Positions 23,530-39,300 are shown, counted from the stretch's first letter. The stretch: DNA of 64,000 nt from Pyrinomonadaceae bacterium (GCA_036389815.1 DASVWB010000086.1:7031-71030), one strand, 5' to 3'. A program made the numbers and translations. Notes: generated from the sequence alone by a model not told the origin.

Positions 23530-23558
23530 TTGAATATTACTTATCCTAAATGTAGTAT
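23530..23558 (+). promoter_or_regulatory. Sigma70-like promoter candidate (TTGAAT-N17-TAGTAT) for the ParB-HTH-like gene
   Basis: TTGAAT at 23530-23535, a 17-nt spacer, then TAGTAT at 23553-23558 (followed by AA), all within an A+T-rich patch. Confidence 0.35.
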
Positions 23559-23604
23559 AAACGTCTGTGTAACATTATTCCTACAACGGAGTTGCTATCA
23601 GACG

Positions 23605-24405
23605 TTGAGAGCGACAAGACGCCGGCAACGTAAAGCTGACCCGCTGGCCTCGCCTGCGCTCGTCCGCTCGATAACCGAGGAGCTGCGCTCGTCGCTACCA
23701 GACCTCATCCCACAGAAAGATAAGGAGTTGGTGCGAATGCTCCGCGCCGCGCGCCACGCGCTACGCTACCCGGCCACACGTACTGATCGCGGGCGCCCCG
23801 GTAGATGGAAGCGCGAGGAACTACTCAAGGTCGCAGCGTGCCTGGGCGACATCCTCGACCGTGAAACATCCTCGCATACCTCCTTCGCTAGCTTCGTCGA
23901 TCACTACCTGCGGCTGCCCGACTTCCCTTCCGACGTGGTCGAGGCGCTTGAGAAGGGAGACATAAACCTTTTCGAGGCCGAGCAACTCGCCCGCGTCACC
24001 GCCAAACGCCTTGAGGTCACTTTTGGTCAGGCAAAGCGCACACGCGCCGAGCTGCTTTCCTCCCATCTGCAAACGAAAGCCTCGGGCGAGAAGCTCCGGC
24101 AGCGGGTGAATGAGCTGCTCCGCTCTTGGGCCGCCGAAACAGAAAAGAGCACGGGCGGCGAATTAAATGCTGAATTAAAGGATTTGGAGGATTTTGACCC
24201 TTACGACTCCACTCACCTGTTCTGGGAACAGCTCAAGCAACTGGGTTTTGCCTTTAGGGAGATACGAAGGGAGGACGTGACCGACGAGGAGGTCGAGGAG
24301 CTTTTGAAGGCCAGCGAGCCGATTCTGGCGATTCTGAGCAGAATTCAGCGACGTAAAGAGCAGTCGAAGGTCGTTAAAGTTCGGCTCAGAGAAACGCCCG
24401 TTTAG
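23605..24405 (+). CDS. ParB/KorB-HTH-like DNA-binding protein (no ParB N-terminal domain recognised)
   Basis: LPDFPSDVVEALEKGDINLFEAEQLARV resembles the ParB HTH segment (LPxxVxxALxxGxIsxGHAraL). The track ORF starts at 23509 inside the A+T-rich promoter-like DNA. High GC3 coding signal begins near the TTG at 23605, which I use. The start is uncertain. Confidence 0.45.
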   Translation: MRATRRRQRKADPLASPALVRSITEELRSSLPDLIPQKDKELVRMLRAARHALRYPATRTDRGRPGRWKREELLKVAACLGDILDRETSSHTSFASFVDHYLRLPDFPSDVVEALEKGDINLFEAEQLARVTAKRLEVTFGQAKRTRAELLSSHLQTKASGEKLRQRVNELLRSWAAETEKSTGGELNAELKDLEDFDPYDSTHLFWEQLKQLGFAFREIRREDVTDEEVEELLKASEPILAILSRIQRRKEQSKVVKVRLRETPV

Positions 24406-24417
24406 TAACGGCGAGCC

Positions 24418-24464
24418 ACCCCTGCATTCATAATTGCAGCCCCTGTAACGAAGATTGCAGGGGT
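24418..24464. repeat. Two dyad repeats (CCCCTGCA-N8-TGCAG / CCCCTG-N-TGCAGGGG) between convergent genes
   Basis: The sequence is ACCCCTGCATTCATAATTGCAGCCCCTGTAACGAAGATTGCAGGGGT. It uses the same motif as the array at 26172-26426. Confidence 0.8.
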
Positions 24465-24465
24465 G

Positions 24466-25086
24466 TCATTTACCTTCTTCACCCCCGATGTGATACCGGC
24501 GGTTGAGTCCGGCCGTCGGCGTCTGGGGCGTAAGAAAGAGGCGAAACACAGTTCCCTTCTTAGTCGGGGTGTTAAAGATTTCCGGCCGCTCGATAAAGCC
24601 CAGCATCTCTAACTGTGCTACCACGTTATAACACTGGCGCTCTTTCAACCCCGCCGCCGCCGCCAACTTGGGCATAGAAGTGAAACATTCCGTCCGACCC
24701 GCCCCGTACGTCACGTCAAAGAGCGCGCGACAGACGCTCATCTGCCCCGACCGCAGAATCGGTGCCCATCGCTTGGAGAATTCCCCGAACAAAGCCCCGG
24801 CATCACCTTCGGGGGTCGATGTTGCGGACGTGAACACCCCTGCAACATTCTGTGCAGGGGCGTCTTGAGCAGCGACATTTACGCGCCTTGCCACCCCTGC
24901 ACCTTTCTTTGCAGGGGTGTCTTGTGCCTGAAGGGGCGGCTCGACGAGGGCCTCCTCCTGGGCCTTGGCTTCGCGGAGAATCTCACGGAGCGGGTTGACC
25001 TCGACGACGCGCGGCGGGCGGTCGGGTAAGCGGAATTTGCTTCGGCCCGCCACTCTCCTCTCAGGTTTTGGTTTCGGCTCGGCCAT
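24466..25086 (-). CDS. Putative centromere-binding partner of ParA (winged-helix-like C-terminus)
   Basis: 206 aa. Its ATG overlaps the ParA stop (ATGA at 25086), implying translational coupling. The C-terminal half (MPKLAAAAGLKERQCYNVVAQLEMLGFIERPE...GTVFRL) looks like a wHTH. This position is normally occupied by ParB or ParG analogues. No family recognised. Confidence 0.45.
   Translation of the reverse strand: MAEPKPKPERRVAGRSKFRLPDRPPRVVEVNPLREILREAKAQEEALVEPPLQAQDTPAKKGAGVARRVNVAAQDAPAQNVAGVFTSATSTPEGDAGALFGEFSKRWAPILRSGQMSVCRALFDVTYGAGRTECFTSMPKLAAAAGLKERQCYNVVAQLEMLGFIERPEIFNTPTKKGTVFRLFLTPQTPTAGLNRRYHIGGEEGK
24835..24919. repeat. Two copies of the CCCCTGCA-N8-TGCAGGGG dyad embedded in the 206-aa CDS
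   Basis: ACCCCTGCAACATTCTGTGCAGGGG lies at 24835-24860 and ACCCCTGCACCTTTCTTTGCAGGGGTG at 24893-24919. On the coding strand they translate to the repeated peptides APAQNVAGV and TPAKKGAGV. Confidence 0.8.
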
Positions 25087-25901
25087 CAGGCACGCGTCTC
25101 CTCAACCGCCAGTTTGAGCTTGCCCTTGCTCTTGCGGGCGCCGAGCCGCTTCAGGACCTCGTCCGTCAACTCGCCGTAGAGCACCGCGCCGCGCGAGCCC
25201 GGCGCATAAAGCTGCACGGGCTGGTGGAATGCCGGCGACTCCTCCAGCTTGACGTTGCGGTGAATGATCGTCTCGAACACCTTCTGGCCGTAGCGTTCCT
25301 TCAGGCTGCGATAGGATTCGGCCGAGACCGACGTACGACCGTCGAAAAGGGTGCAGACCATACCGAGAAGTTCGAGTTCCGGGTTGGTGCTTCTCACCTC
25401 CTCGAATGTGCTCATCAGGTCGTCGAGTCCGTCTTGTGCTAGCGGCGAAGCGGCCACGGGCACCAGCATGTGAGTGGAGGCCAGGAGCGGCGTAGTCAGG
25501 ATCTGGCCCAAGGTCGGCGGCGTGTCGATGATTACGAAGTCGTACGTCGACGACAGCGGGGTCAGCTTCGACCGGAGGCGGTTGATGGCGATGGCCGGCT
25601 CCTTCTCGAAACGGGCGAAGCGCAGCTTCGACGGTACGAGGTCCAGGTGCTCCATCTCCGTGGTAACGATGGCCGCTTCCAGCGGTAGCTTCTCGCGCTG
25701 CTCTGACTCGATCAACACGTCGGCGATGGAAAGGTCGACCTGGTCGGGCGCCAGGAAATGTGAGGTGACGTTAGCTTGAGGGTCACCGTCAACGAGCAGC
25801 GTCTCGTAGCCGCGCATCGCGAGCTCCGTCGCCACGCAGGCCGCGGTGGTGCTTTTGCCCACGCCGCCTTTCTGGTTTGCGATGGCGATCGTCTTCATCA
25901 C
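25086..25901 (-). CDS. parA: ParA/Soj-family partition ATPase
   Basis: A deviant Walker A motif (IANQKGGVGKSTTA) is followed by LLVDGDPQANVT and IIDTPPTLG. The length of 271 aa fits. The start is the GTG at 25901 or the ATG at 25898. Confidence 0.9.
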   Translation of the reverse strand: MMKTIAIANQKGGVGKSTTAACVATELAMRGYETLLVDGDPQANVTSHFLAPDQVDLSIADVLIESEQREKLPLEAAIVTTEMEHLDLVPSKLRFARFEKEPAIAINRLRSKLTPLSSTYDFVIIDTPPTLGQILTTPLLASTHMLVPVAASPLAQDGLDDLMSTFEEVRSTNPELELLGMVCTLFDGRTSVSAESYRSLKERYGQKVFETIIHRNVKLEESPAFHQPVQLYAPGSRGAVLYGELTDEVLKRLGARKSKGKLKLAVEETRA

Positions 25902-25902
25902 T

Positions 25903-26091
25903 CTACGCGGCCTTCCTCTCCGTCACGAGCATCTCAAGAAGCTTGAGCAGCTTCTGCACCGGGGGCGAAGGGCTCAGTTCCTCGCGCTCGTAACGCGCGA
26001 TAGTGTTCGCCGTGACGCCGACCTCTTCGGCGAGTCTCGCCTGCGTGTATCCCAGCGCCTTGCGTAGCCTCTTTATCTGTTCACCCGTCAT
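25903..26091 (-). CDS. XRE-family helix-turn-helix protein
   Basis: 62 aa. IKRLRKALGYTQARLAEEVGVTANTIARYEREE is a classic Cro/C1-type HTH. It is the first gene of the par operon and its stop abuts the parA start. Confidence 0.8.
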   Translation of the reverse strand: MTGEQIKRLRKALGYTQARLAEEVGVTANTIARYEREELSPSPPVQKLLKLLEMLVTERKAA

Positions 26092-26171
26092 ACAAGGATG
26101 CCCCTTTTATAAAGCCGCTCCACATTACTATACGAAGCGTATATACGTCACGAATATTTAGTGGCGCAAGA

Positions 26172-26216
26172 CCCCTGCAACATCGGCCGCAGCCCCTGCA
26201 TTATCCGTTGCAGGGG
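26172..26216. repeat. Two adjacent dyad repeats upstream of the par operon promoter region
   Basis: The sequence is CCCCTGCAACATCGGCCGCAG followed by CCCCTGCATTATCCGTTGCAGGGG. It lies next to the A+T-rich stretch 26100-26165, which holds candidate -10 boxes (TATATA, TATAGT on the minus strand) and the palindrome CGTATATACG (26138-26147). Confidence 0.8.
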
Positions 26217-26265
26217 TGTCAGTTTAAAATTCCCGCTTGAGAGTCAGCCTCAATATCCGACTACA

Positions 26266-26426
26266 CCCCTGCAATTTTCGTTACAGGGGTTGCAATTATG
26301 AATGCAGGGGTGTGGACACCACTGCAACGAGTAGTGCAGGGGGTGTAACGAAAATTGCAGGGGCTGCAAGAATCGTTACAGCCGCTGCACTAATCGTCGC
26401 AGGGGGTGCAATGAAGAATGCAGGGG
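26266..26426. repeat. Iteron-like array: seven tandem ~21-22-bp units, consensus (C)TGCAA-N7-8-T(G/A)CAGGGG
   Basis: Units read directly from the sequence: CCCCTGCAATTTTCGTTACAGGGG, TTGCAATTATGAATGCAGGGG, (TGTGGACACCA)CTGCAACGAGTAGTGCAGGGGG, TGTAACGAAAATTGCAGGGG, CTGCAAGAATCGTTACAGCCG, CTGCACTAATCGTCGCAGGGGG, TGCAATGAAGAATGCAGGGG. The units are contiguous with no spacers, so this is not a CRISPR array. Confidence 0.85.
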
Positions 26427-26647
26427 AATTTACAGACTTAACTTAATAGGGTAGGTATTAACGCCGATCAGGGAGGCGCCGCGAGCGCGTCTCAAAAAGA
26501 AATGAGCCGGAGCGCGACACCGTTCTGAGACCGTGCCGCTCCGGCTCAAGTCAATTACTCGCCGCGACGGTGAGCCGGTGTTCGTGTGTCAATGCGTAAG
26601 AGCACACGCCGGCGTTACCGGGAACTTCGAGTCCGAAGAGGGGAATT

Positions 26648-27757
26648 ATGGCGGGACAGGCTTTGGAGGCCCGGAGGTTCGTTCGCAGGACTCAGCTCGG
26701 GCCCGGCGAATACCGCAAGAACTTCCGCCAGGTTGACGCCGACGTCATCGCGGCCGTGACCTCGCGGGAGGCCGACCGGGTCACGCCGCTGATGAGCAAG
26801 ATTTACCTGCGGCTCGTCAGCGCTCCCGCGCAGTACTGGGAGCGTGAAGGCGTGCTGCGCTTCGAGGCCGAACTGCGCGACGAGGCATGCGTGAGGGCGT
26901 GGGACGCACTGTGCGAAGTGCTCGGGGTGGCATCGGCCACGGCCAGCAAGGCGCTGCGTTGGATGCACGAGCAGGGAATCGTCGGCTACTTCGCGGGCAA
27001 GAACGGCGTGGGCATCCGCGTCTTCCTCAACCGGGCAGCGTCTTCCATCGGCACGCGCGCGGCGGGCAAAAAAATTTTGGAGTTTACCCGTGCTTCATCC
27101 CCCGAGCCTCGTGCTTCACGGGATGAAGCAGCCTTTAGTGACAGCTACGCTGATTCAGAAGTTTTAGACACAGATTTAATTCCGCGCGCGCCGAAAAGCG
27201 GCGCGGAACAATCCGGGTCGGTTAAGAGTTCATTCCGCGTGCGAAGCTCCGAACCCTCCGCGCTTCAGCCTTCAGGCACTCAGGCCGTCAGCGCAACTGT
27301 AGAGCCGGCGGCCGCCGCCGAACTGACCGAGATGCTGCTCGGCAGGCTTGAGCCGGCCGTGCGCGCTGCGGCGGCGCAGGCGGCGGCGCGCGAGCACGAG
27401 CGGACGCGGGAGTGGCTGGAGAGCAGGGGACTGCCGAAGGCGGCCCGCGTCGCACAGCGCGAGGCTTACGAGGTGCTCCGCCGGCACGGGCTGGTCGGCG
27501 CCGCGCCGGGGGGCACGCGCGGGGCGCAGGGCGTGGGGCGACAAGAGTGCGCGCCGCCGCAGGCGCGGCCGCTGACGCCGGACGAGGTGAGGGAACTGGC
27601 CGAGGCGTGCGCCGCGATGCTTGAGGTGCAGGGCCGGCCGATTGAGGCGACGCTCGCGGAGTTGAGCGCGGAGGCCGGCGGTTTCCTGCCGGCCGCGGAG
27701 GCCGCGAGAGTGCGCGAACTCGCCGAGGCGATGGCCCGCGGCGGGGGCGAAGGGTAG
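26648..27757 (+). CDS. Putative replication initiator / wHTH DNA-binding protein
   Basis: 369 aa. A GAGGGG RBS precedes the ATG. It is the first gene downstream of the iteron-like array. A wHTH-like segment (ATASKALRWMHEQGIVGYFAGKNGVGIRVFLNRA) is followed by an Ala/Arg/Glu-rich helical tail. The Rep assignment rests on position only. No family recognised. Confidence 0.4.
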   Translation: MAGQALEARRFVRRTQLGPGEYRKNFRQVDADVIAAVTSREADRVTPLMSKIYLRLVSAPAQYWEREGVLRFEAELRDEACVRAWDALCEVLGVASATASKALRWMHEQGIVGYFAGKNGVGIRVFLNRAASSIGTRAAGKKILEFTRASSPEPRASRDEAAFSDSYADSEVLDTDLIPRAPKSGAEQSGSVKSSFRVRSSEPSALQPSGTQAVSATVEPAAAAELTEMLLGRLEPAVRAAAAQAAAREHERTREWLESRGLPKAARVAQREAYEVLRRHGLVGAAPGGTRGAQGVGRQECAPPQARPLTPDEVRELAEACAAMLEVQGRPIEATLAELSAEAGGFLPAAEAARVRELAEAMARGGGEG

Positions 27758-27923
27758 CGGCCCTATGTCGGCCGAACCGGCGGAGGCCGCGGCTGCGGGA
27801 CGCCCGCGTACCGACCGTAACGCCGCTCGTACTCGGCCCTCCACTCCTGCCCGCTCGGGGCGGCTCGCCTTCGGGTTCTGAGGTAATCGACGCGGCGTCG
27901 CGCCACTGACACACGGCTCTCAC

Positions 27924-27942
27924 GCACGTTTGCTAAACGTGC
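27924..27942. promoter_or_regulatory. Perfect 8-bp inverted repeat GCACGTTT-GCT-AAACGTGC upstream of the DUF2760/Hsp70 operon
   Basis: Read directly from the sequence. It lies about 75 nt before the first start codon at 28016 and just upstream of an A+T-rich patch (TTTAGCATATTCGTTTATTTTG). This is an operator candidate. Confidence 0.4.
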
Positions 27943-28015
27943 CCGCGGCCTTTAGCATATTCGTTTATTTTGTCGGGCGGGATAGCCGCCTGTAGTCCGC
28001 AGGCATGGAGAAAAC

Positions 28016-28588
28016 GTGATGATGGGATTCGGCAAGCGAGTATCTTACGCCGCCCGCTGCTTCTTCGCGGTGCTTTCGCGCGGCGAGGTGCCCGAGGACA
28101 TCGCCCCGGAAGTGGTGAGGGGCGCGGCGTCGCCCGCGCCCGCGCGAGAGCCCGAGGCGGCCCCGGCGCCCGCAGAAGCCGCCGGGGCGGGGGCGGCAGA
28201 GGAGTCGCCCGACCGCGCCGTGCAACTGCTCGCGCTGCTCCAGCGCGACGGGCGGCTCGTAGACTTCTTCGGCGAGGACATCGCGCCCTACCAGGACGCG
28301 CAGATCGGCGCGGCCGTGCGCGAGCTGCACGAGAACTGCCGCCGGGCGCTCGCACAATACGTCACGCTGGAGCCGGTCATCGACGGCGAAGAGGACCGGC
28401 CCGTCACGGTCGAAGAAGGCTTCGACCCGGCCGCCGTCAAGCTCGTCGGCAACGTGACGGGGCGGCCGCCCCTGCGCGGGCTGCTCCGTCACCGCGGCTG
28501 GCGCGTGGCGCAAATCAACCTGCCGACGCTGCCCCCGCCGGGGGGCGGCCGCACGGTGGTCGCGCCGGCCGAGGTGGAAATTCAGTAA
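28016..28588 (+). CDS. DUF2760-like protein
   Basis: 190 aa. It has an N-terminal hydrophobic/amphipathic segment (VSYAARCFFAVLS), an Ala/Pro/Glu-rich linker, and a C-terminal block (QLLALLQRDGRLVDFFGEDIAPYQDAQIGAAVRELHENCRRALAQYVTLEPVI) that matches my memory of the DUF2760 signature. A GGAG RBS lies 5-8 nt before the GTG/ATG cluster. Confidence 0.65.
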   Translation: MMMGFGKRVSYAARCFFAVLSRGEVPEDIAPEVVRGAASPAPAREPEAAPAPAEAAGAGAAEESPDRAVQLLALLQRDGRLVDFFGEDIAPYQDAQIGAAVRELHENCRRALAQYVTLEPVIDGEEDRPVTVEEGFDPAAVKLVGNVTGRPPLRGLLRHRGWRVAQINLPTLPPPGGGRTVVAPAEVEIQ

Positions 28589-28610
28589 GCGGGTCTTGAG
28601 GTGAACTCTT

Positions 28611-30461
28611 TTGGAAACACGTTTCGTCGTCGGCATTGACCTGGGCACGACCAACACGGCGCTGGCCCGTTTCGACACGGCCGCGCCCGAAGAGGCGGCC
28701 GGCATCAGCGTCGAGGCCGTCCCGCAGTTGACCAACCCGAACGAGGTCGAGGAGCGGACGCTGCTGCCCTCTTTCCTCTACGTGCCGGGCGAGCTCGACT
28801 TCCCGAAGGGGGCGCTGGCGCTCCCCTGGGAGCGCGAGCCGCAGGTCTTCGCCGGCGAGCTGGCGCGCAGGCGCGGCGCCGAGAACCCGACGCGCCTCGT
28901 CGCGTCCGCCAAGTCCTGGCTCTCCTACGCGGCCGTTGATCGCTCGTCCGCCATCCTGCCCTGGGGCGCGCCCGAGGAGGTGCGCAAGCTCTCGCCGGTC
29001 GAGGCGTCGGCCGAGTACCTGCGCCACCTCCGCCAGTCCTGGGACGCGCGCGTGAACGCGAAGAAGAACCCGGAGCTGGCGCTGGGCGCGCAGCAGTTGA
29101 TGCTCACCGTGCCGGCCTCCTTCGACGAGGAGGCGCGCGAGCTGACCCTGCGCGCGGCCGAGTCGGCCGGCCTAAAAAACGTGACGCTGCTCGAAGAGCC
29201 GCAGGCGGCCTTCTACGCGTGGATAGACGCGCAGGGCGACGGGTGGCGCAAGCGCGTGAAAGTCGGCGACCTCGTCCTCGTCTGCGACGTGGGCGGCGGC
29301 ACGACCGACTTCAGCCTCATCGCGGTCTCGGAGGAGGGCGGCGAACTCTCGCTCAAGCGCGTGGCCGTCGGCGAGCACATCCTGCTCGGCGGCGACAACA
29401 TGGATTTGGCGCTCGCGCGCCTGCTGCAACAGCGCCTCGAAGAGGAGGGGCACCGCGTAGACACGTGGCAGTTGCAGGGGCTCTGGCACCAGTGCCGCCT
29501 GGCGAAGGAGAGGCTCTTCGCAGACCCGAAGAGCCAGAAGCAGCCCGTGACGCTTTTGGGCAAGGGCTCGAAGCTCGTCGGCGGCACGGTCAAGACGGAG
29601 CTGCGCCGCGAAGACCTTGAGCGCGTCCTCGCCGAAGGCTTCTTCCCCGCCGTCGGCCGCGACGAGATGCCGGCACGCCAGCGGCGCATCGGCTTTCAGG
29701 AGCTGGGGCTGCCTTACGCCGCCGACCCGGCCGTCACCAAGCACCTCGCGCGCTTCCTCGCGCAGCAGGCGGCGGGCGGCCCCGACGCGGACAGCATACG
29801 CCGCGGCCCAAGCGGCTTCGCCTGCCCGACGCACGTCCTCTTCAACGGCGGCGTGATGAAGGCCGGCGTGCTGCGCGAGCGCGTCGTCGCGGTGCTCGAC
29901 TCCTGGCTCCGCGCCGAAGGGTTCGAGCCGCTCGGCGAGCGCGGCGTGCTCGAAGCGCCCGACCTCGACCACGCCGTCGCGCGCGGCGCGGCCTACTACG
30001 GCAGGGCGAAGCGCGGGCGCGGCGTCCGCATCCGCAGCGGCGCCCCGCGCACATACTACATCGGCGTCGAAAGCTCGATGCCGGCCGTGCCCGGAATGCC
30101 CGCGCCGCTCAAGGCTCTGTGCGTCGTGCCGTTCGGCATGGAGGAGGGGACGGAGGCCGCCATCCCTTCGCGCGAGTTTGGCCTCGTGGTCGGCGAGCCG
30201 GCCGAGTTCCGCTTCCTCAGCTCCACCGTGCGCAGGGGCGACGAGATTGGCTCCATCGTCGAAGACTGGGGCGACGAGATAGAGGAGTCGAGCCCGCTCG
30301 AAGTCACGCTCAAGGTCGAGGGCAAGGAGGACACCGTCATGCCCGTCCGCCTTGAGACGCGCGTGACCGAGGTCGGCACGCTCGAAGTCTGGTGCGTCTC
30401 GCGCGACGGCTCGCGGCGCTGGAAGCTGGAGTTCAACATCAGGGAGCAGGACGAGAGTTAA
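28611..30461 (+). CDS. Non-canonical Hsp70-family ATPase (616 aa, no lid or EEVD)
   Basis: TTG is the only in-frame start after a TGA. A GAGGTG RBS lies 7 nt upstream. Actin/Hsp70 NBD motifs are present: VVGIDLGTTNTALA, LVLVCDVGGGTTDFSLI, LLGGDNMDLALA and VLFNGGVMK. The C-terminus is a beta-sandwich-like segment ending TEVGTLEVWCVSRDGSRRWKLEFNI. Confidence 0.85.
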   Translation: METRFVVGIDLGTTNTALARFDTAAPEEAAGISVEAVPQLTNPNEVEERTLLPSFLYVPGELDFPKGALALPWEREPQVFAGELARRRGAENPTRLVASAKSWLSYAAVDRSSAILPWGAPEEVRKLSPVEASAEYLRHLRQSWDARVNAKKNPELALGAQQLMLTVPASFDEEARELTLRAAESAGLKNVTLLEEPQAAFYAWIDAQGDGWRKRVKVGDLVLVCDVGGGTTDFSLIAVSEEGGELSLKRVAVGEHILLGGDNMDLALARLLQQRLEEEGHRVDTWQLQGLWHQCRLAKERLFADPKSQKQPVTLLGKGSKLVGGTVKTELRREDLERVLAEGFFPAVGRDEMPARQRRIGFQELGLPYAADPAVTKHLARFLAQQAAGGPDADSIRRGPSGFACPTHVLFNGGVMKAGVLRERVVAVLDSWLRAEGFEPLGERGVLEAPDLDHAVARGAAYYGRAKRGRGVRIRSGAPRTYYIGVESSMPAVPGMPAPLKALCVVPFGMEEGTEAAIPSREFGLVVGEPAEFRFLSSTVRRGDEIGSIVEDWGDEIEESSPLEVTLKVEGKEDTVMPVRLETRVTEVGTLEVWCVSRDGSRRWKLEFNIREQDES

Positions 30462-30464
30462 TTT

Positions 30465-30492
30465 GAAATTTCAAATCAGAAATTTCAAATCA
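30465..30492 (+). repeat. Tandem 14-nt A/T-rich repeat (GAAATTTCAAATCA x2, partial third copy over the ATG) between the two Hsp70-like genes
   Basis: Read directly: TAA-TTT-GAAATTTCAAATCA-GAAATTTCAAATCA-TGAAATGG. Each copy contains the palindrome GAAATTTC. No Shine-Dalgarno sequence precedes the ATG at 30497. Confidence 0.8.
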
Positions 30493-30496
30493 TGAA

Positions 30497-33379
30497 ATGG
30501 AAGCCTCAAGCCGTTTCCTGATCGGCGTAGACCTCGGGACGACGAACTCGGCCGTGGCCTACGTGGACGCGGACGAGAGGCCGGCGCGCGGGGCGCCTCC
30601 CCCCGTCCGCGTCTTCGAGGTGCCCCAGCTCGTCGCCGAGGGCGAGGTGCGCGCCCTCCCTTCGCTCCCCTCATTTATCTACTTCCCGGACGAGGCGGAG
30701 GACGCGGCGCCCGGCCTCCGCCTGCCGTGGGAGGAGCAGACGGACGGGGCTTTGGTCGGCGTGCTCGCACGCGAGCGCGGCGCGCTGGCGCCGGGCCGGC
30801 AGGTCTCCTCGGCCAAGTCGTGGCTCTGCCTCTCGTCCGTGGATCGCACGGACGCCTTCCTCCCGTGGGACGCCGAAGGCGGCGACAAGGTCTGCTCGCC
30901 CGTCGCGGCCTCGGCCCGCTACCTCACACACCTGCGCGACGCGTGGAACCATTCGACGGCGCGGGGCGAAGACGGTACGCTCGACGACGCGCTGCGGTTC
31001 GAGCGTCAACAGGTTGTGCTCACCGTGCCCGCCTCGTTCGACGAGGAGGCGCGCGAGCTGACGGTCGCGGCCGCGCTTGAGGCCGGGATTGAAAACCTGA
31101 CGCTGCTGGAAGAACCGCTCGCGGCCTTCTACGCGTGGGTCGCGGCGCAGAAGGGCGGGCTCAGGCGGCAGCTCAGGGACGGGCAGCTCGTCCTCGTCTG
31201 CGACGTGGGCGGCGGCACGACCGACTTCAGCCTCATCCGCGTCGGCGTCGAAGGCGGCGAGCTGCGCCTCGTGCGGACGGCCATCGGCGAGCACCTCCTG
31301 CTCGGCGGCGACAACGTAGACCTCGCGCTCGCGCGCCTCGTCGAGGAGAAGCTCGGCCGCCCGCGCCTCTCGCTCAGGCAGCAGAACGCGTTGCGGCGGC
31401 AGTGCTGCGCGGCCAAGGAGCGTCTGCTCGGCGAAGGCGCGCCCGAAAGCGTGCCCGTCACCGTCCTCGGCGGCGGTCGCTCGGTCGTGGGCGGCGCACT
31501 CTCGACGGAGCTGACGCGCGCGGAGGTCGAAGGGCTGCTGGCGGACGGCTTCCTCCCCGCGACCGCGCCCGACGACCTGCCCGCCTCCGAACGGCGCGCG
31601 GGGCTGCGCGAACTCGGGCTGCCTTACGCGGGCGAGCCCGCGATAACGAAGCACCTCGCCGCGTTCCTCACGCAGGCGGCGCGCGCGATGCGTGCCGGCG
31701 GCGTGGGGCCGGCCGACGCCGAAGGGCCGGACGTGATGGCGCGGCCCGACGCCGTACTCTTCAACGGCGGCTTCTTCCTCCCCGACCTCACGCGCCGGCG
31801 CGTAATCGAGACCGTCGCCGGCTGGTTCCCGCAGTCGGGGAGGCGCTGGCGGCCCAAAGTCCTCCACAACGAGTCGCCCGAGACGGGCGTCGCGGTCGGC
31901 GCGGCCTACTACGCGCGCGTGCGCCGCATGGGCGGCGTCCGCGTGAGCGGCGGGAGCGCGCGCGGCTACTACATCGGCGTCCAGCAGGCGGGGCACGCCG
32001 CCCCGGGTCAGGATGTGCGGACGGCCGTGTGCGTCCTGCCGCGCGGGACCGAGGAGGGCACGCGGCTCGAACTCGGCGGGAGGGAGTTCGCGGCCCTGAC
32101 GAACCGCCCCGTCTCCTTCACCCTCTACAGCACGACCACGCGACAGGACGGGCAGGGCGAGGTCGTCCGCTTCGGCGTGGGTGAGTTGCACCGGCACGCG
32201 CCGCTCGTCACCGTGCTGCGCTACGGCAAGCGCTCGCGCCACATCGAACTCGACGTGCGGCTGACCGCGCACTTCACCGAAGTCGGGACGCTCGAACTGT
32301 GGTGCGAGTCGCCGAAGACCGGCCACCGCTGGAGGCTCCAGTTCCAGCTCAGGGGCGCGGAAGCTCTGGAAGAGGAGGCGGCCGGGGACGAAGAGCCGGA
32401 GGCGCACGAAGAAGCGCCACAGGTCGTCGTCACGGACGAGGCGGTGGCGGAGGCGGAGAGGCTGCTCCGCGCGGTCTTCGGCGGCCCGCGCGACGCGCCG
32501 GGCGGAGAAAGCCCGTCGCCGGAGTCGCTGCCGGGGAGGCTGGAAGCCGCGCTGGGCTACCGCAAGGACGCGTGGCGCACGGACACCATACGCAAACTCT
32601 GCGACGTGCTGGCCGAACTCCCGGCCGGCCGCCGCAAGGGTCGCAACTACGAGGCGCGCTGGCTCAACCTGTTCGGCTTCTGCCTGCGCCCGGGCTTCGG
32701 CGCGGTGCTCGACGACTGGCGCGTGGCGCGCGCCCGCAAGGTCTACCACGAAGGTCTCTGCTTCGAGAGGGACGTGCAGTGCCAGGTCGAGTGGATGATA
32801 CTCTGGCAGCGCGTCTCGGGCGGACTCAACGCCGGCCAGCAGCTCGAAATCTACGAGCGCCACAAGGGGCTGCTGGGCGTCGGCGGCAGGAGAGTCAAGG
32901 GGAGGCTCAACCGGCAGGTCGAGCGCGAGGGGCTGCTCCTGTTAGCGAGCCTCGAACACCTGCCGCCCGCCCTCCGCGTGGAACTCGGCGAGGAGATTCT
33001 CGCGCGCGTTGGGGAGGAGCCCGGCAACAAGAGTTTCACATGGGCGCTCGGGCGCCTGGGCGCGCGCGTCCCCTTCTACGGCCCGCTCAACTGCGTCGTG
33101 CCCGCCGGGGCGGCGGCGCGTTGGGCGGCCGCCCTGCTCGCCCTGCCCGAGTTGACGCCGCACGTCGCCACCGCCGTCTCGCAACTGGCGGCGCGGACGG
33201 ACGACCCGCTACGCGACGTAGAGCCCGAGTTCAGGCAGGAAGCGATCCGGCGGTTGCAGGGGGCCGGCGTGGCCGACGAGCTAATCGAGAGCCTGCGCGC
33301 TTACGTGCCCCGGGGCCGGGCCGCCGCCGTGCGCATCTTCGGCGAATCTCTGCCGGAAGGCTTACGCCTCGCGGGCTGA
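30497..33379 (+). CDS. Non-canonical Hsp70-family ATPase with ~330-aa helical C-terminal extension (960 aa)
   Basis: Motifs: LIGVDLGTTNSAVAY, LVLVCDVGGGTTDFSLI, LLGGDNVDLALA, VLFNGGFF and a beta-sandwich-like region ending TEVGTLELWCESPKTGHRWRLQFQL. These are followed by an acidic linker (EEEAAGDEEPEAHEE) and an unassigned helical domain (…ARWLNLFGFCLRPGFG…EWMILWQRVSGG…). Confidence 0.85.
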   Translation: MEASSRFLIGVDLGTTNSAVAYVDADERPARGAPPPVRVFEVPQLVAEGEVRALPSLPSFIYFPDEAEDAAPGLRLPWEEQTDGALVGVLARERGALAPGRQVSSAKSWLCLSSVDRTDAFLPWDAEGGDKVCSPVAASARYLTHLRDAWNHSTARGEDGTLDDALRFERQQVVLTVPASFDEEARELTVAAALEAGIENLTLLEEPLAAFYAWVAAQKGGLRRQLRDGQLVLVCDVGGGTTDFSLIRVGVEGGELRLVRTAIGEHLLLGGDNVDLALARLVEEKLGRPRLSLRQQNALRRQCCAAKERLLGEGAPESVPVTVLGGGRSVVGGALSTELTRAEVEGLLADGFLPATAPDDLPASERRAGLRELGLPYAGEPAITKHLAAFLTQAARAMRAGGVGPADAEGPDVMARPDAVLFNGGFFLPDLTRRRVIETVAGWFPQSGRRWRPKVLHNESPETGVAVGAAYYARVRRMGGVRVSGGSARGYYIGVQQAGHAAPGQDVRTAVCVLPRGTEEGTRLELGGREFAALTNRPVSFTLYSTTTRQDGQGEVVRFGVGELHRHAPLVTVLRYGKRSRHIELDVRLTAHFTEVGTLELWCESPKTGHRWRLQFQLRGAEALEEEAAGDEEPEAHEEAPQVVVTDEAVAEAERLLRAVFGGPRDAPGGESPSPESLPGRLEAALGYRKDAWRTDTIRKLCDVLAELPAGRRKGRNYEARWLNLFGFCLRPGFGAVLDDWRVARARKVYHEGLCFERDVQCQVEWMILWQRVSGGLNAGQQLEIYERHKGLLGVGGRRVKGRLNRQVEREGLLLLASLEHLPPALRVELGEEILARVGEEPGNKSFTWALGRLGARVPFYGPLNCVVPAGAAARWAAALLALPELTPHVATAVSQLAARTDDPLRDVEPEFRQEAIRRLQGAGVADELIESLRAYVPRGRAAAVRIFGESLPEGLRLAG

Positions 33380-33530
33380 GATGGCCGTTAGACTCCCTTG
33401 CGAATTACCTTCTTCTCGCAACGAAGTTGCAACCAAGCCGTCCCGCCCGGAGGTTACTATCCGTCTCGCCTAACGGGCGTTCCTTCTGAGAGTGAGTGAA
33501 GCTTTGGGGCTGGCCGCGAGAGCGGCCGTA

Positions 33531-33569
33531 GGCGTCGGGGGTGGGGGCCCCCGACGCCTTTTCTTTTCT
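33531..33569 (+). terminator. Rho-independent terminator closing the DUF2760/Hsp70 operon
   Basis: The sequence is GGCGTCGGGGG-TGGGGG-CCCCCGACGCC followed by TTTTCTTTTCT. The stem is perfect 11 bp. Confidence 0.75.
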
Positions 33570-33769: not shown

Positions 33770-35431
33770 TCACGGAGCGTTTTTCTCCACATCGATGTAG
33801 AAGTTGCGGTCGACTTCGAATGTTTTGATCTCTTCGGGGGAGACGAAGGTCTGTACCGCCTCGGTCGGCGTGATTGTGACTACCTTGCCGTTAACAGCTA
33901 CGCGGAGCGGCATCGCAAACCCTTTGACCACCCTCTCGTAGCTGAACGTCAGCGTCTTCCCGTTCACCTTGTATTTTAATAGCGGGATTTCCGTCGTCCG
34001 CAGGTATTGGTCGAAAACCTTGCCGAGGTCAACGCCGGCCTTCTTACTGATGTAAGCTTCGACCTGCCCCGTCGAAACGGTCTGGTGCCAAAAATCGGCG
34101 TTGAGCCCGCGCAGGATGGAGAGCCATTTGGCGTCGTCGTTGATGACGTGGCGGATGGTGTGCAGCATGTTCCCGCCCTTGGGGTACATGTCGCCCGACC
34201 CTTCTCTGTTCGCGCCGTAAGTGCCGATGATCGGCCTGTCGTTTCTGATGAGGCGGCGGTTGCCGACCATGTAATCTTCCGCCTCTTTCCTGCCGAAGTG
34301 GTACTCGACGAAAAGGCTCTCCGAATAATTCGCGAAGCCCTCGTGAATCCACATGTCCGCCGCGTCTTTCATCGAGACGTTGTTGCCGAACCACTCGTGG
34401 CCGGATTCGTGGACGATGATGAAGTCGAATTTAAAACCGACTCCGGTGCCGCTGCCGTCCCGCTGGAGATAGCCGTTCCTGAACCAGTTGCCGTAGGTGA
34501 CCGAGCTTTGGTGCTCCATGCCGGGGTATGAGACCGCGACGAGTTTGTAGCCGTCTTCGTAAAAGGGGTACTTGCCGAACCAGTGCTCGAAGGCTTCCAT
34601 CATGCGGGGGGCTTCTTTGAAGTGCCTGACGGCAACGTCCTTCTGGTGGGCCAGCACCCAGTAGTCCATGTCCAGCACCCCGCCTTTGCCGCGGTATTTT
34701 TCGGAAAAGTTCACGTAGTTGCCGATGTTAACGTTGACCCCGTAGTTGTTGATCGGATTCACGACTTCCCAGTGAAAGGTTTTTGTCTTGCCGGCGATGT
34801 CGTGGTCTGTTTTTCTCAAACGACCGTTTGAGACGGCCGTCAGATTCTCCGGCACGGTCACGCTGATTCTCATCCCGCGGTCGGGCTCGTCGGCCCCGTG
34901 GTCTTTATTCGGCCACCAGATGCTCGCCCCGATTCCCTGACAGGTGGTGACGATGAAATGCTCCCCGAGGTCGTCTCTGCCCCACGTCACCCCGCCGACC
35001 CATGGGGGGTTCTTACTCGCCACGGGGACGCCTTCGTAAAATATCTCGACCTTATCTTCTACGCCCTTCGGAATGTCCTTCTCGAAAGTCACCCAGTAGA
35101 CATTCCCCTCGCGCTCGAATTTGAGCTGAGACTCGCCGTGGGTGACCTTCGTGACCGCGAGCGGCGGCTGCAAATCGATCTGCATTTTGTTCCCCGCTTT
35201 CAGAGTTTTGAAAGTGATCGCGTTCGACCCTTTCAGCCTCCTGGTCTCAGGGAAAAACTCGACCTTCAGGTGATAATGCAGCACGTCCCACCACTCGCGT
35301 TCGGGTGTTACCGAGCCCCGGAGCATCTCCTGGCGGGTGATGCTCTCTGTCTGGGCAGAGAGGGAGCCGGGGGCGCCCTGCACCTGTAGGAGGAGTCCGA
35401 TTGTAAGTGCTATTAATTTACGCGTGGTCAT
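33770..35431 (-). CDS. Secreted M1-family zinc aminopeptidase
   Basis: Signal peptide MTTRKLIALTIGLLLQVQGAPG. A GxMEN-type exopeptidase motif (YPGMEHQS), the zinc motif HESGHEWFGN and the downstream WIHEGFANYSE are present. G+C is visibly lower than in the neighbouring genes. Confidence 0.85.
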   Translation of the reverse strand: MTTRKLIALTIGLLLQVQGAPGSLSAQTESITRQEMLRGSVTPEREWWDVLHYHLKVEFFPETRRLKGSNAITFKTLKAGNKMQIDLQPPLAVTKVTHGESQLKFEREGNVYWVTFEKDIPKGVEDKVEIFYEGVPVASKNPPWVGGVTWGRDDLGEHFIVTTCQGIGASIWWPNKDHGADEPDRGMRISVTVPENLTAVSNGRLRKTDHDIAGKTKTFHWEVVNPINNYGVNVNIGNYVNFSEKYRGKGGVLDMDYWVLAHQKDVAVRHFKEAPRMMEAFEHWFGKYPFYEDGYKLVAVSYPGMEHQSSVTYGNWFRNGYLQRDGSGTGVGFKFDFIIVHESGHEWFGNNVSMKDAADMWIHEGFANYSESLFVEYHFGRKEAEDYMVGNRRLIRNDRPIIGTYGANREGSGDMYPKGGNMLHTIRHVINDDAKWLSILRGLNADFWHQTVSTGQVEAYISKKAGVDLGKVFDQYLRTTEIPLLKYKVNGKTLTFSYERVVKGFAMPLRVAVNGKVVTITPTEAVQTFVSPEEIKTFEVDRNFYIDVEKNAP

Positions 35432-35810
35432 TCACCGCCTCCCGAGTTTTATCGGCCCGACGCCCGGCAATGTATGTTGACTCAAGCGCGGGGAAGCCAC
35501 AAGCTTTCGCCGGACTTGAGGCGCCCGGCGGAAGGCCGGCCGGTTCACCGTCACTCTCGGCCGACGCGAGCGGCGAGACCATTCCAGCGCGTCAAGTCGG
35601 AGCCCGCGCGGCCGTGCCGAAGCGGACGGAAGATTCCCTGAAGTGGGGAGCACGTTCCCGCGCCAGACGTGAGAACCTCCACGCCGGCGGGCAGCCGTTG
35701 CCCGCCCCGGGGCGCTCACGGGCTTCGCACGCCGTAAGAATCCAGTAGTTTTAGCGCCTTCCGAGCTGATGACGGCCCGGAATCCAGCCCCGGACGAAAG
35801 GGAAGGGCGG

Positions 35811-35826
35811 TGGCACGGATACTGCT
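35811..35826 (+). promoter_or_regulatory. Sigma54-type -24/-12 promoter candidate (TGGCACGGATACTGCT)
   Basis: It matches the consensus TGGCACG-N4-TTGCW except for one position (C for T before the GC). A GAATCCAG direct repeat lies at 35738-35745 and 35780-35787, just upstream. An NtrC-type activator is encoded in the downstream operon. Confidence 0.45.
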
Positions 35827-36373
35827 AAGCCATAGGTCAGCTTCTTTGAAAGGGGGGCTTATCAAATGCGAGTCAAAGGGTCAATACAATCTTCCGACAG
35901 GGCATTCTATGCCTGTTTGACGGAGAGGCGCCGCGGGGTCGGGGCGGCCTGCGCTTCCTCCCGGCTTGTTCGGAAATACTCGTCGAGCGACTACCGCGCG
36001 CGGCTGGGGTTCGTCCCGTGCCGGAACGCCTTGAGGAATAGGTCTTTGGCGGCGGCGTCGCCGGAGAGCAGCGAAATAACCTCCGACCTGCCCGGAGTGT
36101 GCGCGCGCGGTCAGGGTCGGCGGGCGGCCTTCGCCGAAGGCGAGACGCTCGTAAGTTCTGGGAGCCGGCATCACGTCCGGGGGCGAGCGAGGGGGAAGCA
36201 CGCGGGCATCGTCGGAGTCGTCGAGCGCCGCGAGCCGTCCCCCGGGCGTGATTCTTCGGCCCGCGCCCGGCCTCCAGGCGCGGCGGCAACTTAAAGCGGC
36301 CTCGGCCCACAACAGTACCGGCACGGTCAGTGGCCCGCCCGGCGGACGGGGCGGGGTGACCGGGAGCAAACGT

Positions 36374-39300
36374 ATGAACAGCTACGCAGCCTTCATCTAC
36401 GGCGCCCTCACATCGCCGAGCGGCGACAACGCCGCCGACGGCCGTGCTCTCGCGCGCCAGTGCATCACGCAGTTGGAAGAGGTCGGAGACCGGGAGCGTT
36501 TCCCGCCGCGCCTGCTCATCCTGCTTACCTCGCCGGCCTACCTTGAAATGCTGGCGGCCAGGCAACTGCTGTCGGGCATCGAGCAGGAGTTCAGGAAGGA
36601 GAACCTCGCCGACGGCGTCGCGCTCGTCGGGAGTTCGGCGGCCGCCGTGTTCTTCGATAACCGTATCCACGAGGAGGGCGCGCTGCTGATCTGCCTCTCG
36701 TCGCTGCTGCTGGAGACGAAGGCCGGCGTCGGCAGGCACGCCAGCCGCGACCCGGAGGCCGCCACCGAGGAGCTTTTAAAAAGCCTCGGGATGGGCGACC
36801 GGAATAAGGATTTGAACCCGCTGTCGAACCGGATGCTGCTGACCTTCTTCCCCGACATCAACAGGGGGGCGAGCGGCCCCGTCGTCTACAGGAGCGACGA
36901 ACTGCACCGGACGCTGTGGAAAAAAACTCACTGCCGCATCCCCATCGCGGGCGGCATCTCCGCGGCCGGCACCCCGCGCGAGACCGGCCCGACGCAGGCG
37001 CTCCAGTACTGCAACTGGGAGGTCTACAGCGACGCCGTCGTCGCCGCGCAGGTTGATTCGGGCGTGCCGCTGGGCGTGAGCCTCTGCCGCGGCCTGGAGA
37101 CCGTCCGCGACGACAACGCCATCGTCCGGCGGCGCGTGAAGGACCTCTCGGAGGACGGGCTCTACGTCGACGCATTCTTCGAGGGGTCGCTCGACGGGTA
37201 TGCGAACGGCGGCGACGGCCTCCTGCTGCTCGGCGAGGACTCGAAGGAGCGCGACTTCATCATGGCCCTCCACGAGCCGGCCGCGGGCGGCCGGTTCCGC
37301 GTGATGGACAAGCTGGAGAGGGGCGAGACGCTGCGGGTCCTGAGGCCGCACCCAGAGCAGTTGCTCAGGATGGCCGGCGACATCGTGCGGCGCTCGACCG
37401 AGCGCGTGCGCGTGCGCCACCCGCTCGGCTGCCTCTCGTTCATCTGCTCGGCGCACCTGCGCCGCCGCCGCCAGCACGTCTCGCTCTACATCGAGCAGGC
37501 CATCAAGAGCATCGGTGACGCCTTCGGCGGCGTGCCCTGCGTGGGCGGGTTCGTCGACGGCGAGGCGGGGGTGGACGAGACGGGCCGCTCCCAGTTCGGC
37601 AACTGGAGCATGGTCGGGCTCATCCTCGGCGACGAGATGCGCGACCGCACGCCGCTCTACCGCGGCTTCAAGGCGCTGGCGAAGTACAACCACGGCCTCA
37701 CGGCTGAGACCGACATCGGGGCGGCCATCGGGCGGTCGCTGGAGCTGGTCTACGAGACGGACTTCCCCGGCGTCATGATCTCGACGCTGCTCCCCGACCA
37801 GGAGGACGACCACGTCATCGTGCAGGGGGCGAAGGGGAAGGCGTTCGCCGGCTCGGCGCCGGGCACGCGCATCCCGATCACGGTCGGCGACCCGCTGCAC
37901 AGCGTCATCGCGGACAAGAGGCCGCTCTTCATGAAGGCCGAGGCGGGCGGCGCGTGCACGGGGCAGTACATCGTCCCGCTCAAAGACCTGCTCGACGACA
38001 TCATCGCGGTCATGCACGTGGACCTAGGACGCGTCAGCCCCGACAGTTGCGACGTGACGCCCGTCGAGCGCGAGGTGCTGACCTCCCTCGGCGCGGCCAT
38101 CTCGGCCGGCGTCAACGACATCCTGAACTGGCGCGCCAGCGAGATAACGCGCGAGCTGGACAGGGGGCTCAAGGAGAGCATCTCGGCCGCGACCATGAAG
38201 GACGGCCTCAACGTCTTCGTCAGGGCGGCCGTCGCGGCCTTCGGCGCGGACATGGGGCACGTGAGGCTCTCGCCCGGCAGGGGCGGGCCGCTGGAGCTGA
38301 AGGCCGGCGTCGGCGATTACTACGAGGTCGCGCGGCGCTACCGCGCCGCCATCCGGCTCGACGACGTGTCGCCGACCTGCGAGACCTTCTACAGCGGCGG
38401 GACGACCGTCGTTAACGACGCCTGGAACAACGCCGCCCACAACCGCCTGCGCGAGACCGTGCCGGACGACCCCGTCAGGGAGGCCCTGCGCGAGGTGCGC
38501 TCCTACGCGAACACCGCCTTCAAGAACGCCGAGGGCGAGACCCTCGGCACCATCAACCTGCTCTCGAAGAGCCCGTGGTTCTTCACCCAGATGCACCGGC
38601 AGACGCTGGGGGCGCTCGCCGAGCGCGTCGAGTTCCTCGTCCAGCACCTCGAGCAGAAGGAGCAGAAGGAGCAGATCAACAGGGGCATCAAGTTCCTGCG
38701 CAACGCGACGCCGCAGCTCTCGCAGGTCAACGTCAACGACATGCCGGGCGCGCTCCGCGAGGCGACGCAGCGCTTCTGCGAGGCCGCGGGCGCCGAGGTC
38801 GCCTCGCTCTACCTCTTCGACAAAGACCTCAACAAGTACGTGCTCCGGGCGCAGCACAACTGGGCCGACGGCCGCTGGGTCAACGTCGCGCGGTACGAGC
38901 GCGACGGCGGCTGGCTCTGGAACGTCGCGCGCCAGCCCACGCCCGAGCCGCAAATTTTCCGCGATCGCGACCCCGCCGGCCTGCTCTACTCCGCGGAGAT
39001 GTTCGGCGGCGGCCTCGGCCCGGACGTCGTGGCGTCGGCGGCCGGGCTGCCGCTGACGCTCGGCGACGAGAACCTGGGACTGCTCGTCCTCTACGTCAGG
39101 CACCCCGCGGGAGAGGTCGCCGAGTTCGCCACCATCGACACGAAGGATTTACAGGAGGCCGCCAGTTCGATGGCGGCCTTGGTTCGTATACTCTTCTTTA
39201 GTCAGGAGAAGATTTTCGGCGAGAAGATGCAGAGGCAGTTCAAAAAACTCTCCGACATCTTCCTGCAGGAGAAGCCGCGCGAGGTCATAGAGGCGGACCT

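Follow-up and report, generated by a model that had tools for sequence, protein, structure and literature searches.

We examined a 64,000-nucleotide stretch of DNA from a Pyrinomonadaceae bacterium (GCA_036389815.1 DASVWB010000086.1:7031-71030; hereafter the window, counted from its first letter), in which three genes on one strand form a compact operon encoding a DUF2760 protein and two Hsp70-type ATPases, one short and one long (Table 1). We refer to the three genes as the triad. They are separated by gaps of 22 nt (genes 1 and 2) and 35 nt (genes 2 and 3), and the deposited proteins HEX8719927.1, HEX8719928.1 and HEX8719929.1 are 100% identical to the three proteins of the window. The start of gene 1 is ambiguous, with candidates at GTG 28016, ATG 28019 and ATG 28022, and the deposited version is 188 aa long. 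An intrinsic terminator closes the operon. Its hairpin has a 13-bp stem with 10 G-C pairs and a 4-nt loop, is followed by TTTTCTTTTCT, and folds with an energy of -29.4 kcal/mol (z = -2.7 against shuffled sequences). A preliminary description of this DNA had named three closely spaced open reading frames (ORFs) on one strand with a strong terminator behind them, and this layout is confirmed here, down to the two gaps. The terminator is not kept in relatives, where the downstream flanks are unrelated, and an Rfam search of the operon and its leader returned a sub-threshold match on the terminator only.

Table 1. Features of the triad, its leader and the adjoining par/rep-like cassette. Positions are nucleotides of the window unless residues or another locus are given. 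NBD, nucleotide-binding domain; SBD, substrate-binding domain; HTH, helix-turn-helix; wHTH, winged helix-turn-helix.
Feature	Position	Strand	Remarks
Gene 1 (DUF2760 protein)	28016-28588	+	190 aa from GTG start
Gene 1, aromatic amphipathic helix	residues ~4-22		
Gene 1, Ala/Pro/Glu linker	residues ~30-62		
Gene 1, DUF2760 domain	residues 65-188		
Gene 1, tail			...APAEVEIQ
Gene 2 (short Hsp70 paralogue)	28611-30461	+	616 aa, NBD + SBD-beta
Gene 3 (long Hsp70 paralogue)	30497-33379	+	960 aa
Gene 3, NBD	30497-31936	+	residues 1-480; AlphaFold model
Gene 3, SBD-beta sandwich	31964-32338	+	residues 490-614; AlphaFold model
Gene 3, acidic disordered linker	32354-32419	+	residues 620-641; AlphaFold model
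Gene 3, DUF3731 armadillo-like solenoid	32435-33346	+	residues 647-950; AlphaFold model, ~17 helices
Intrinsic terminator, operon end	33530-33569	+	hairpin 33530-33559, then T-rich tail
Putative promoter	27930-27958	+	-35 TTGCTA (27930-27935), 17-nt spacer, -10 TAGCAT (27953-27958)
Inverted repeat TGCTAAA-N13-TTTAGCA	27931-27957		overlaps putative promoter
Leader stem-loop GGCGG-GAUAG-CCGCC	27976-27990	+	5 bp; 7-sequence alignment
Shine-Dalgarno GGAG, gene 1	28007-28010	+	'ATGGAG' invariant in 7/7 aligned leaders
Par/rep-like cassette, window	24417-27757		upstream of triad
Par/rep-like cassette, locus L086 (close relative)	L086 13290-17031		downstream of triad
Cassette, ParA-like ATPase			PHROG E=5e-60
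Cassette, HTH_3 protein			cassette member
Cassette, 206-aa protein			weak replication-initiator wHTH similarity, E=1.5e-4
Cassette, 369-aa orphan			no match anywhere
Cassette, iteron-like dyads	24441-24462, 24838-24859, 24895-24916, 26194-26215, 26267-26288		degenerate copies to 26426

Domain anatomy of the three proteins

Genes 2 and 3 encode paralogues that share 47% identity over all 616 residues of gene 2 (gene 3 residues 1-619). Both score 66.8 bits against the Pfam HSP70 profile PF00012 (cutoff 20.6; E=1.5e-18 for gene 2), with a match that covers the central part of the nucleotide-binding domain (NBD) only. Against the NCBIfam DnaK and HscA models the two proteins reach 59-82 bits versus cutoffs of 620-1019 (59-65 bits versus 822 for TIGR02350, and 77-82 bits versus 708 for TIGR01991). 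Scores this far under the cutoffs rule out orthology of genes 2 and 3 to any named bacterial Hsp70, in agreement with the earlier view that neither is an ordinary DnaK or HscA.

Comparison across 47 triads allowed us to ask which positions the two paralogues have in common. Seventy positions are at least 95% conserved in both, all catalytic motifs among them: D-L-G-T, the catalytic Lys, EEP, DxGGGTxD and GGDNxD. In gene 2 the residues conserved at this level in 47 orthologues include D10, G12, T13, K101, E195/E196, D226, G228-T231, D233 and G260-D265. Since the catalytic motifs are intact in both paralogues, both should hydrolyse ATP. The nucleotide-binding motifs named in the preliminary description are confirmed as well. 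The ATPase core also gives weak Pfam and NCBIfam matches to MreB, which could point to actin/MreB-like cytoskeletal or filament-forming ATPases. These scores lie at or below cutoff and reflect the shared ASKHA core only, whereas the Hsp70-specific motifs, the catalytic Lys and a β-sandwich part of the substrate-binding domain (SBD-beta), docked in the DnaK/BiP manner, are all found, and a cytoskeletal role is scarcely credible.

The domain boundaries of gene 3 were taken from an AlphaFold2 model built on 56 diverse homologues (predicted local distance difference test score, pLDDT, 86; predicted template modelling score 0.89). In Foldseek searches its first ~615 residues superpose on two-domain DnaK/BiP with a template modelling (TM) score of 0.71 and a root-mean-square deviation of ~5.5 Å, and the best superpositions are with domain-docked states and with 520-residue BiP chains comprising NBD and SBD-beta. 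The SBD-alpha lid and the DnaK-type C-terminal tail are missing from both proteins: gene 2 terminates 5 residues past the aligned β-sandwich, and the sandwich of gene 3 leads into a disordered linker and then an unrelated solenoid. From the end of gene 2 and the model and superposition of gene 3, it follows that the two paralogues are correctly called lid-less, with a real SBD-beta, as first proposed.

The C-terminal region of gene 3 is Pfam DUF3731 (PF12531, 'DNA-K related protein'), matched over residues 717-958 with E=3.5e-69 and 233.9 bits (cutoff 25). The acidic linker and ~330-aa helical domain of the preliminary description are thus both present, and the helical domain, which it could not assign, now has a family. 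An exhaustive search found 1,437 representative DUF3731 clusters at 50% identity; in full-length proteins, of ~900-1000 aa, the domain is always C-terminal. Modelled alone (pLDDT 92), it finds its best Protein Data Bank (PDB) matches in designed armadillo-repeat proteins, importin-alpha and SPAG6 (E=2e-3 to 4e-2, TM-scores 0.45-0.55). A profile search against PDB sequences gave hints only, namely OR366, an engineered repeat protein, at E=0.17 and SPAG6 at E=2.1. When 46 DUF3731 domains were scanned against Pfam at relaxed thresholds, one yielded HEAT_EZ and the sole other family called was DUF3731. Judged by these models, DUF3731 is predicted to be an ARM/HEAT-like alpha-solenoid, unlike an enzyme or toxin fold. 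Arg predominates among the invariant positions of the domain (R699, R731-P732-G733, G735, D739, R742, R772, E820 and R857), with Asp, Glu and several Trp besides, and the R-P-G-x-G loop is poorly ordered in the full-length model. Some metagenome-assembled genomes (MAGs) have Hsp70 genes broken into two ORFs (L047 9998-12962, L008 8926-13392, L010 8818-10765), with the end part of DUF3731 in L047 forming an ORF of its own (123 aa); the splits are either frameshifts or pseudogenes, or else assembly errors.

Gene 1 had been recognised as a DUF2760 protein with an Ala/Pro/Glu linker, and both features are found. The Pfam profile (PF10816) matches with E=1.4e-47 and 161.1 bits against a gathering cutoff of 25, and residues 65-188 align to positions 2-124 of its 124. 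The family is large, as clustering at 90% identity gives at least 3,800 clusters, and a search of its profile against PDB sequences gave no significant match to a solved structure. An alignment of 39 diverse homologues has Q76, R80, D83, D94, G98, R102, G145, G155, H159, G161 and W162 invariant, and the C-terminal end, APAEVE(L/I), is strikingly conserved. The PAEVE tail is retained in variant loci in which DUF2760 (D) accompanies only the short Hsp70 (S) or only the long Hsp70-DUF3731 protein (L). It is kept with either paralogue alone and therefore probably touches a surface common to both. The opposite end of the protein is more diverse. The N-terminus resembles a transmembrane helix (KD19 hydropathy of at least 1.6) in 15 of the 39 homologues, among them those of Vibrio, Photobacterium, Methylococcales, Chloroflexota and a Bradyrhizobium plasmid; the remaining homologues, that of the window included, have an aromatic amphipathic helix of the FFxRxxLAFxxFF type. 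The low-complexity linker that comes after this segment varies among homologues.

Distribution, synteny and mobility

A locus scan with one genome per species gave 80 loci, to which plasmid-derived loci and loci of close relatives were added (90 loci, 1.7 Mb). Among the ~72 evaluable loci, the others being cut by contig ends, the order D-S-L on one strand is found in 50 intact triads and in one more that a contig end cuts. Variant loci comprise five D-L and five D-S arrangements, one of the latter being the triad cut by the contig end. The carriers belong to at least 11 phyla, including Acidobacteriota, Myxococcota, Desulfobacterota, Chloroflexota, Fibrobacterota, Planctomycetota, Verrucomicrobiota, Lentisphaerota, Chlamydiota and Bacillota, with Binatia and Beta- and Gammaproteobacteria (Burkholderia, Paraburkholderia, Nitrosomonas, Vibrio, Photobacterium, Methylomonas) also represented in the scan. 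The earlier statement that DUF2760 genes recur beside pairs of atypical Hsp70 genes in diverse bacteria is therefore borne out, as an ordered triad. The genes are also tightly packed: the median distances from a stop codon to the DLGTT motif of the next gene are 32 and 50 nt, and the lower-quartile spacing implies overlapping stop and start codons. Planctomycetota hold both lone long genes and D-S loci, which suggests a split system.

No fourth gene accompanies the triad. When 948 neighbouring ORFs were clustered all against all, the best cluster covered 9 loci and its position varied, and a Pfam census of 129 upstream neighbours gave 199 families, mostly metabolic or regulatory, none in more than 4 proteins and none of them DnaJ or GrpE. 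Searches by tblastn with hand-written J-domain and GrpE probes found neither gene in the window, as had been noted before, and a single weak J-like match in the 90 loci. It is possible that J-domain proteins or GrpE encoded elsewhere in the genome serve the triad. The lone long genes have heterogeneous neighbours (SecA-like, AlaDH, MinD-like and others). In one Planctomycetota MAG (L020 5025-12877), a truncated SecA-like ATPase of 644 aa lies 30 nt upstream of the lone long gene on the same strand, with an outer-membrane efflux (OEP) protein before it; this single case may hint at a secretion or membrane link.

Close relatives reveal how the unit behaves over shorter distances. In seven Pyrinomonadaceae genomes (L001, L086-L090 and the window), the long Hsp70s of the relatives being 83-86% identical to that of the window, the triad is intact and both flanks are different in each. 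The conserved DNA starts abruptly ~85-90 nt 5′ of gene 1 and stops at the stop codon of gene 3; a leader of ~112 nt is all that accompanies the genes. The triad is intact amid unrelated flanks in 7/7 genomes, and therefore relocates as a cassette. Neither a recognisable recombinase nor att repeats were seen around it.

One possible explanation for such behavior is a conflict or anti-phage system, in which the Hsp70 pair would sense a foreign protein or RNA and the cell would be killed or arrested, for example through a membrane-active N-terminus of the DUF2760 protein. The triad is indeed sporadic across phyla, with a different context in each of the seven close relatives. On the Thiodictyon syntrophicum megaplasmid pTs485 (L004, 1-13735), a D-S pair stands among DISARM-like, PLD and TIR genes. 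It lies there between a DUF1156 + PLD 'anti-phage' pair, a VapC toxin and a TIR-domain gene, the sole defence-island-like context seen. The PADLOC-DB 2.0 candidate PDC-M61B is a weak match, and CnuD, which has an Hsp70 NBD and SBD followed by a HEAT-like region, is predicted in CoCoNuT restriction systems (PMC11090510). The census of upstream neighbours gives no support to the conflict role, anti-phage or anti-plasmid, that the preliminary description had offered: only ~3-4 of the 129 proteins match any PADLOC defence model. The PDC-M61B match covers ~90 residues of the shared ATPase core (E=6e-6 and 8e-5), and gene 1 has no PADLOC match. There is no nuclease, TIR, protease or pore-forming effector domain in the triad, DUF3731 being predicted to be an armadillo-like binder; both ATPase sites are intact, whereas those of CnuD are described as degenerate, and the adjacent genes are a ParA module and an M1 peptidase, not McrBC. 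Defence genes tend to differ between strains, whereas the long gene is at least 90% identical across many strains and species of Myxococcus, where it looks vertically inherited, and across Pyxidicoccus species, and the published phenotypes are abiotic. Taken together, we consider a conflict role distinctly unlikely.

A second explanation for the mobility of the triad is that it is plasmid-borne accessory cargo tied to a partition or replication module, serving plasmid maintenance or host adaptation, for example. Directly upstream of the triad in the window lies a cassette with a ParA-like ATPase, an HTH protein, a weakly Rep-like wHTH protein and iteron-like dyads (Table 1). Strict dyads of the form CCCTGCA-N8-TRCAGGG number at least five and all lie within 24.4-26.3 kb, against a chance expectation of none. 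The cassette with its dyads also adjoins the triad in L086, in the same internal order and on the opposite side; none of the other 89 loci has it. A complete triad is found on a conjugative Bradyrhizobium plasmid of 110 kb.

Other observations separate the triad from the cassette. Of seven close relatives, two have the cassette next to the triad and five lack it within 10 kb. The GC content of the cassette is 0.59-0.64 versus 0.716 for the triad, which is near the window average of ~0.68, and the cassette is less conserved, with nucleotide identities of ~71-75% versus 78-85%. A search for att-like direct repeats bracketing the module and the triad found none; the repeat scan gave short low-identity pairs, probably due to chance. 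At the level of the family, homologues are found on chromosomes and on contigs of up to 5.6 Mb, and only 11 of 72,556 plasmid records in PLSDB match, seven of them non-mobilizable, mostly replicons of 0.5-3.5 Mb and mostly chromids or megaplasmids of Burkholderia and Caballeronia. Phage records hold no homologue, just a distant HscA-like match. The triad family is mostly chromosomal and rare on plasmids. We take the cassette for an element in its own right, mobile or episomal, that has become linked to the triad in some members of the clade, and plasmid cargo is a very improbable account of the triad itself. Of the rep/par module reported earlier, the ParA protein and the iteron-like dyads stand and 'rep' is weakly supported; the label of accessory cargo fits the local par/iteron cassette and the relocation of the triad, and does not extend to the family.

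Leader and flanking DNA

In the seven Pyrinomonadaceae loci, whose flanking genes are otherwise unrelated, the first conserved DNA 5′ of gene 1 is a putative promoter overlapped by an inverted repeat. A sigma-70 scan left the promoter TTGCTA-N17-TAGCAT uncalled (8/12 positions match), and a promoter role for 27930-27958 is plausible from the sequence. The inverted repeat is the sole copy in the window, with 0 expected by chance. L001-L003 and L086-L090 have it at the corresponding position and the other 82 loci lack it; it is therefore restricted to Pyrinomonadaceae loci and present in all of them, and could be an operator. Pattern searches for the heat-shock operators CIRCE and HAIR gave either nothing or no more matches than chance would, much as had been reported for the upstream region.

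Further downstream, alignment of the seven leaders reveals a short stem-loop in which 35/35 cells pair, one pair covaries (A-U in four sequences, G-C in three) and the loop is variable. With one covarying pair, support for this predicted stem-loop is modest; the single-sequence minimum free energy fold in the window favors another structure, and there is no Rfam match. The Shine-Dalgarno GGAG lies 5-11 nt 5′ of the candidate starts of gene 1.

On either side of the triad the window has a patch of low GC content (0.59-0.64), at 22000-28000, which holds the par/rep-like cassette, and at 34000-36000, which holds a gene for an M1-family peptidase (33770-35431, - strand) just 3′ of the terminator. 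Both patches may be foreign DNA. A 1011-aa protein encoded at 19352-22387 on the - strand borders the first of them and combines an Omp85-type C-terminal domain with a weak MgtE_N match, an unusual pairing. On the same strand as the triad and 2.7 kb downstream of it, 36248-41735 encodes a FIST-GAF-GAF histidine kinase (1431 aa) and then a receiver-HATPase hybrid; no linkage of the histidine kinase to the triad was seen in relatives.

A possible two-Hsp70 machine and its relation to known systems

A literature search found no published mechanism for this architecture, in agreement with the preliminary description, and no papers on DUF2760 or DUF3731. The broader statement that no function has been assigned by experiment holds for mechanism and needs qualification for phenotype, as a likely family member has been deleted with non-specific effects on stress survival and sporulation. 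At 90% identity, the 925-aa protein ABF92794.1 of strain DK1622 clusters with the long Hsp70-DUF3731 protein of the Myxococcus locus L030, a full triad, and judging by strain and unusual 925-aa length it is the product of MXAN_5323, which would make this gene a member of the triad family. MXAN_5323 (925 aa) is non-essential and is among the few M. xanthus hsp70 genes that respond to heat; H2O2 and development induce it too, its deletion reduces sporulation and H2O2 survival, and it does not rescue an E. coli dnaK mutant (PMC8265645). The survey of M. xanthus Hsp70s left its operon partners unremarked (PMC8265645). The three-gene 'DnaK-related protein' operon VC1373-1375 of V. cholerae, which appears only in expression screens, is probably another triad, by its annotation and by the triads of other Vibrio species. 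The Myxococcus stk locus was considered as the same system and rejected: StkA is a 540-aa Hsp70, followed by SCP2-like and small PhaE-like proteins.

Building on the anatomy, conservation and synteny observed, we infer interactions, a membrane location and clients as follows. The triad may be a self-contained, ATP-driven chaperone machine with two Hsp70s, working at the cytoplasmic face of the inner membrane in stress proteostasis, a tentative reading that is the best supported of those considered and to which we give a probability of roughly 0.45. The short and long paralogues would pair through their NBDs, as Hsp70 and Hsp110 do, each driving nucleotide exchange on the other, and GrpE would therefore be unnecessary under this proposal. 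The DUF2760 protein would take the role of a J-protein or adaptor, tethering the Hsp70 pair to the membrane and gating the ATPase or the substrate site, with its PAEVE tail in contact with the surface common to both paralogues. The Arg- and Trp-rich solenoid could bind an extended peptide of a client or partner in the armadillo manner, and the lid-less SBDs would allow polypeptides that are membrane-proximal, unfolded or damaged to be captured fast and with low affinity. The phenotypes of MXAN_5323 fit a specialized stress helper and not a general DnaK.

Several observations weigh against this two-Hsp70 membrane machine. Membrane association of the DUF2760 protein is suggested by hydropathy, and the N-terminus of gene 1, which had been described as hydrophobic or amphipathic, proves to be an amphipathic rather than a transmembrane helix in the window (maximum KD19 of 0.87). 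The armadillo similarity of DUF3731 is weak (E of at least 2e-3, TM-score ~0.5). Linkage of the three genes is not obligatory, as the long gene stands by itself in ~11 loci, mostly of PVC (Planctomycetota, Verrucomicrobiota, Chlamydiota) bacteria and with ample flanks. Conflict systems, too, are typically sporadic in distribution and relocate as cassettes. Lastly, the phenotypes of MXAN_5323 are mild and common to four other Hsp70 deletions, and indicate no specific client or site (PMC8265645).

A bolder version of the proposal is that the triad is an autonomous Hsp70 motor that runs without J-protein or GrpE. The paralogues would then cycle each other's nucleotide through an NBD-NBD heterodimer, as an independently evolved analogue of Hsp70-Hsp110, and DUF2760 and DUF3731 would represent two new classes of co-chaperone, the former an activator or adaptor anchored in the membrane and the latter a binder of clients or partners built into the long Hsp70. 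We hold this stronger form to be possible, if doubtful.

Alternatively, one or both paralogues could act in trans as co-chaperones of housekeeping DnaK, in the manner of Hsp110-like nucleotide exchange factors or as disaggregation enhancers. A 2026 review, which describes bacterial DnaK derivates as unexplored 'dark matter', proposes Hsp110-like NBD-NBD action for them in general and notes that every genome with such derivates has a bona fide DnaK as well (PMC13580251). MXAN_5323 is likewise induced by heat and H2O2 together with DnaK (PMC8265645). On the other hand, the two paralogues and DUF2760 are co-inherited as a tight unit, which suggests that they are one another's primary partners; SBD-beta is kept in both paralogues and would be needless in a pure exchange factor; and there is no linkage to dnaK, dnaJ or grpE. 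We therefore regard service to DnaK as unlikely.

The component families of the triad already have DUF entries, and a knockout of one member is published; the triad is thus not a new entity. Hsp70s are commonly regarded as dependent on J-domain proteins and nucleotide exchange factors for their function. The mechanism of the triad would test whether the Hsp70 cycle can run on a different co-chaperone logic, and the system would offer a bacterial model of Hsp70-Hsp110-type pairing along with functions for two DUF families. It is experimentally tractable in M. xanthus and in V. cholerae (probably VC1373-1375).

In comparison with the canonical DnaK-DnaJ-GrpE system, the triad shares the NBD fold, the catalytic residues and an SBD-beta docked as in ATP-state DnaK/BiP, as well as a three-gene operon logic that recalls KJE operons. 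It differs in having neither SBD-alpha lid nor C-terminal tail and no linked J-domain or GrpE partner, and in pairing two Hsp70 paralogues with a putatively membrane-anchored DUF2760 protein. In the eukaryotic Hsp70-Hsp110 system (Ssa1-Sse1), the two proteins form an NBD-NBD heterodimer in which the larger paralogue is the nucleotide exchange factor. Much like this pair, the triad has two diverged Hsp70 paralogues, one of them enlarged at the C-terminus. Hsp110, however, keeps its lid and SBD insertions, whereas the extension in the triad is an armadillo-like domain set apart by a disordered linker; the triad pair stems from an independent bacterial duplication, and a heterodimer is proposed here by analogy.

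Closer in specialization are E. coli HscC (with DjlB/DjlC) and HscA-HscB, which are non-essential Hsp70s with shortened lids and partners encoded next door (PMC13580251). These systems differ in using J-domain partners and in having no second paralogue, DUF2760 or DUF3731, and HscA-family scores are 77-82 versus 620-709. CnuD of the CoCoNuT systems nominally matches gene 3 in domain order, with an Hsp70 NBD and SBD and then a HEAT-like alpha-solenoid (Bell et al., eLife 2024, PMC11090510). Its published description sets it apart, with degenerate ATPase motifs and obligatory McrB/McrC (DUF2357) partners, whereas the motifs of gene 3 are intact and no McrBC is adjacent (PMC11090510). MXAN_5323 and VC1373-1375, in turn, are probable family members studied without the triad being recognised, for which generic phenotypes or expression changes have been published. 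Two lid-less Hsp70s with predicted activity, joined to an ARM-like domain and a putatively membrane-anchored DUF2760 protein and with no linked J-protein or GrpE, clearly depart from known Hsp70 systems.

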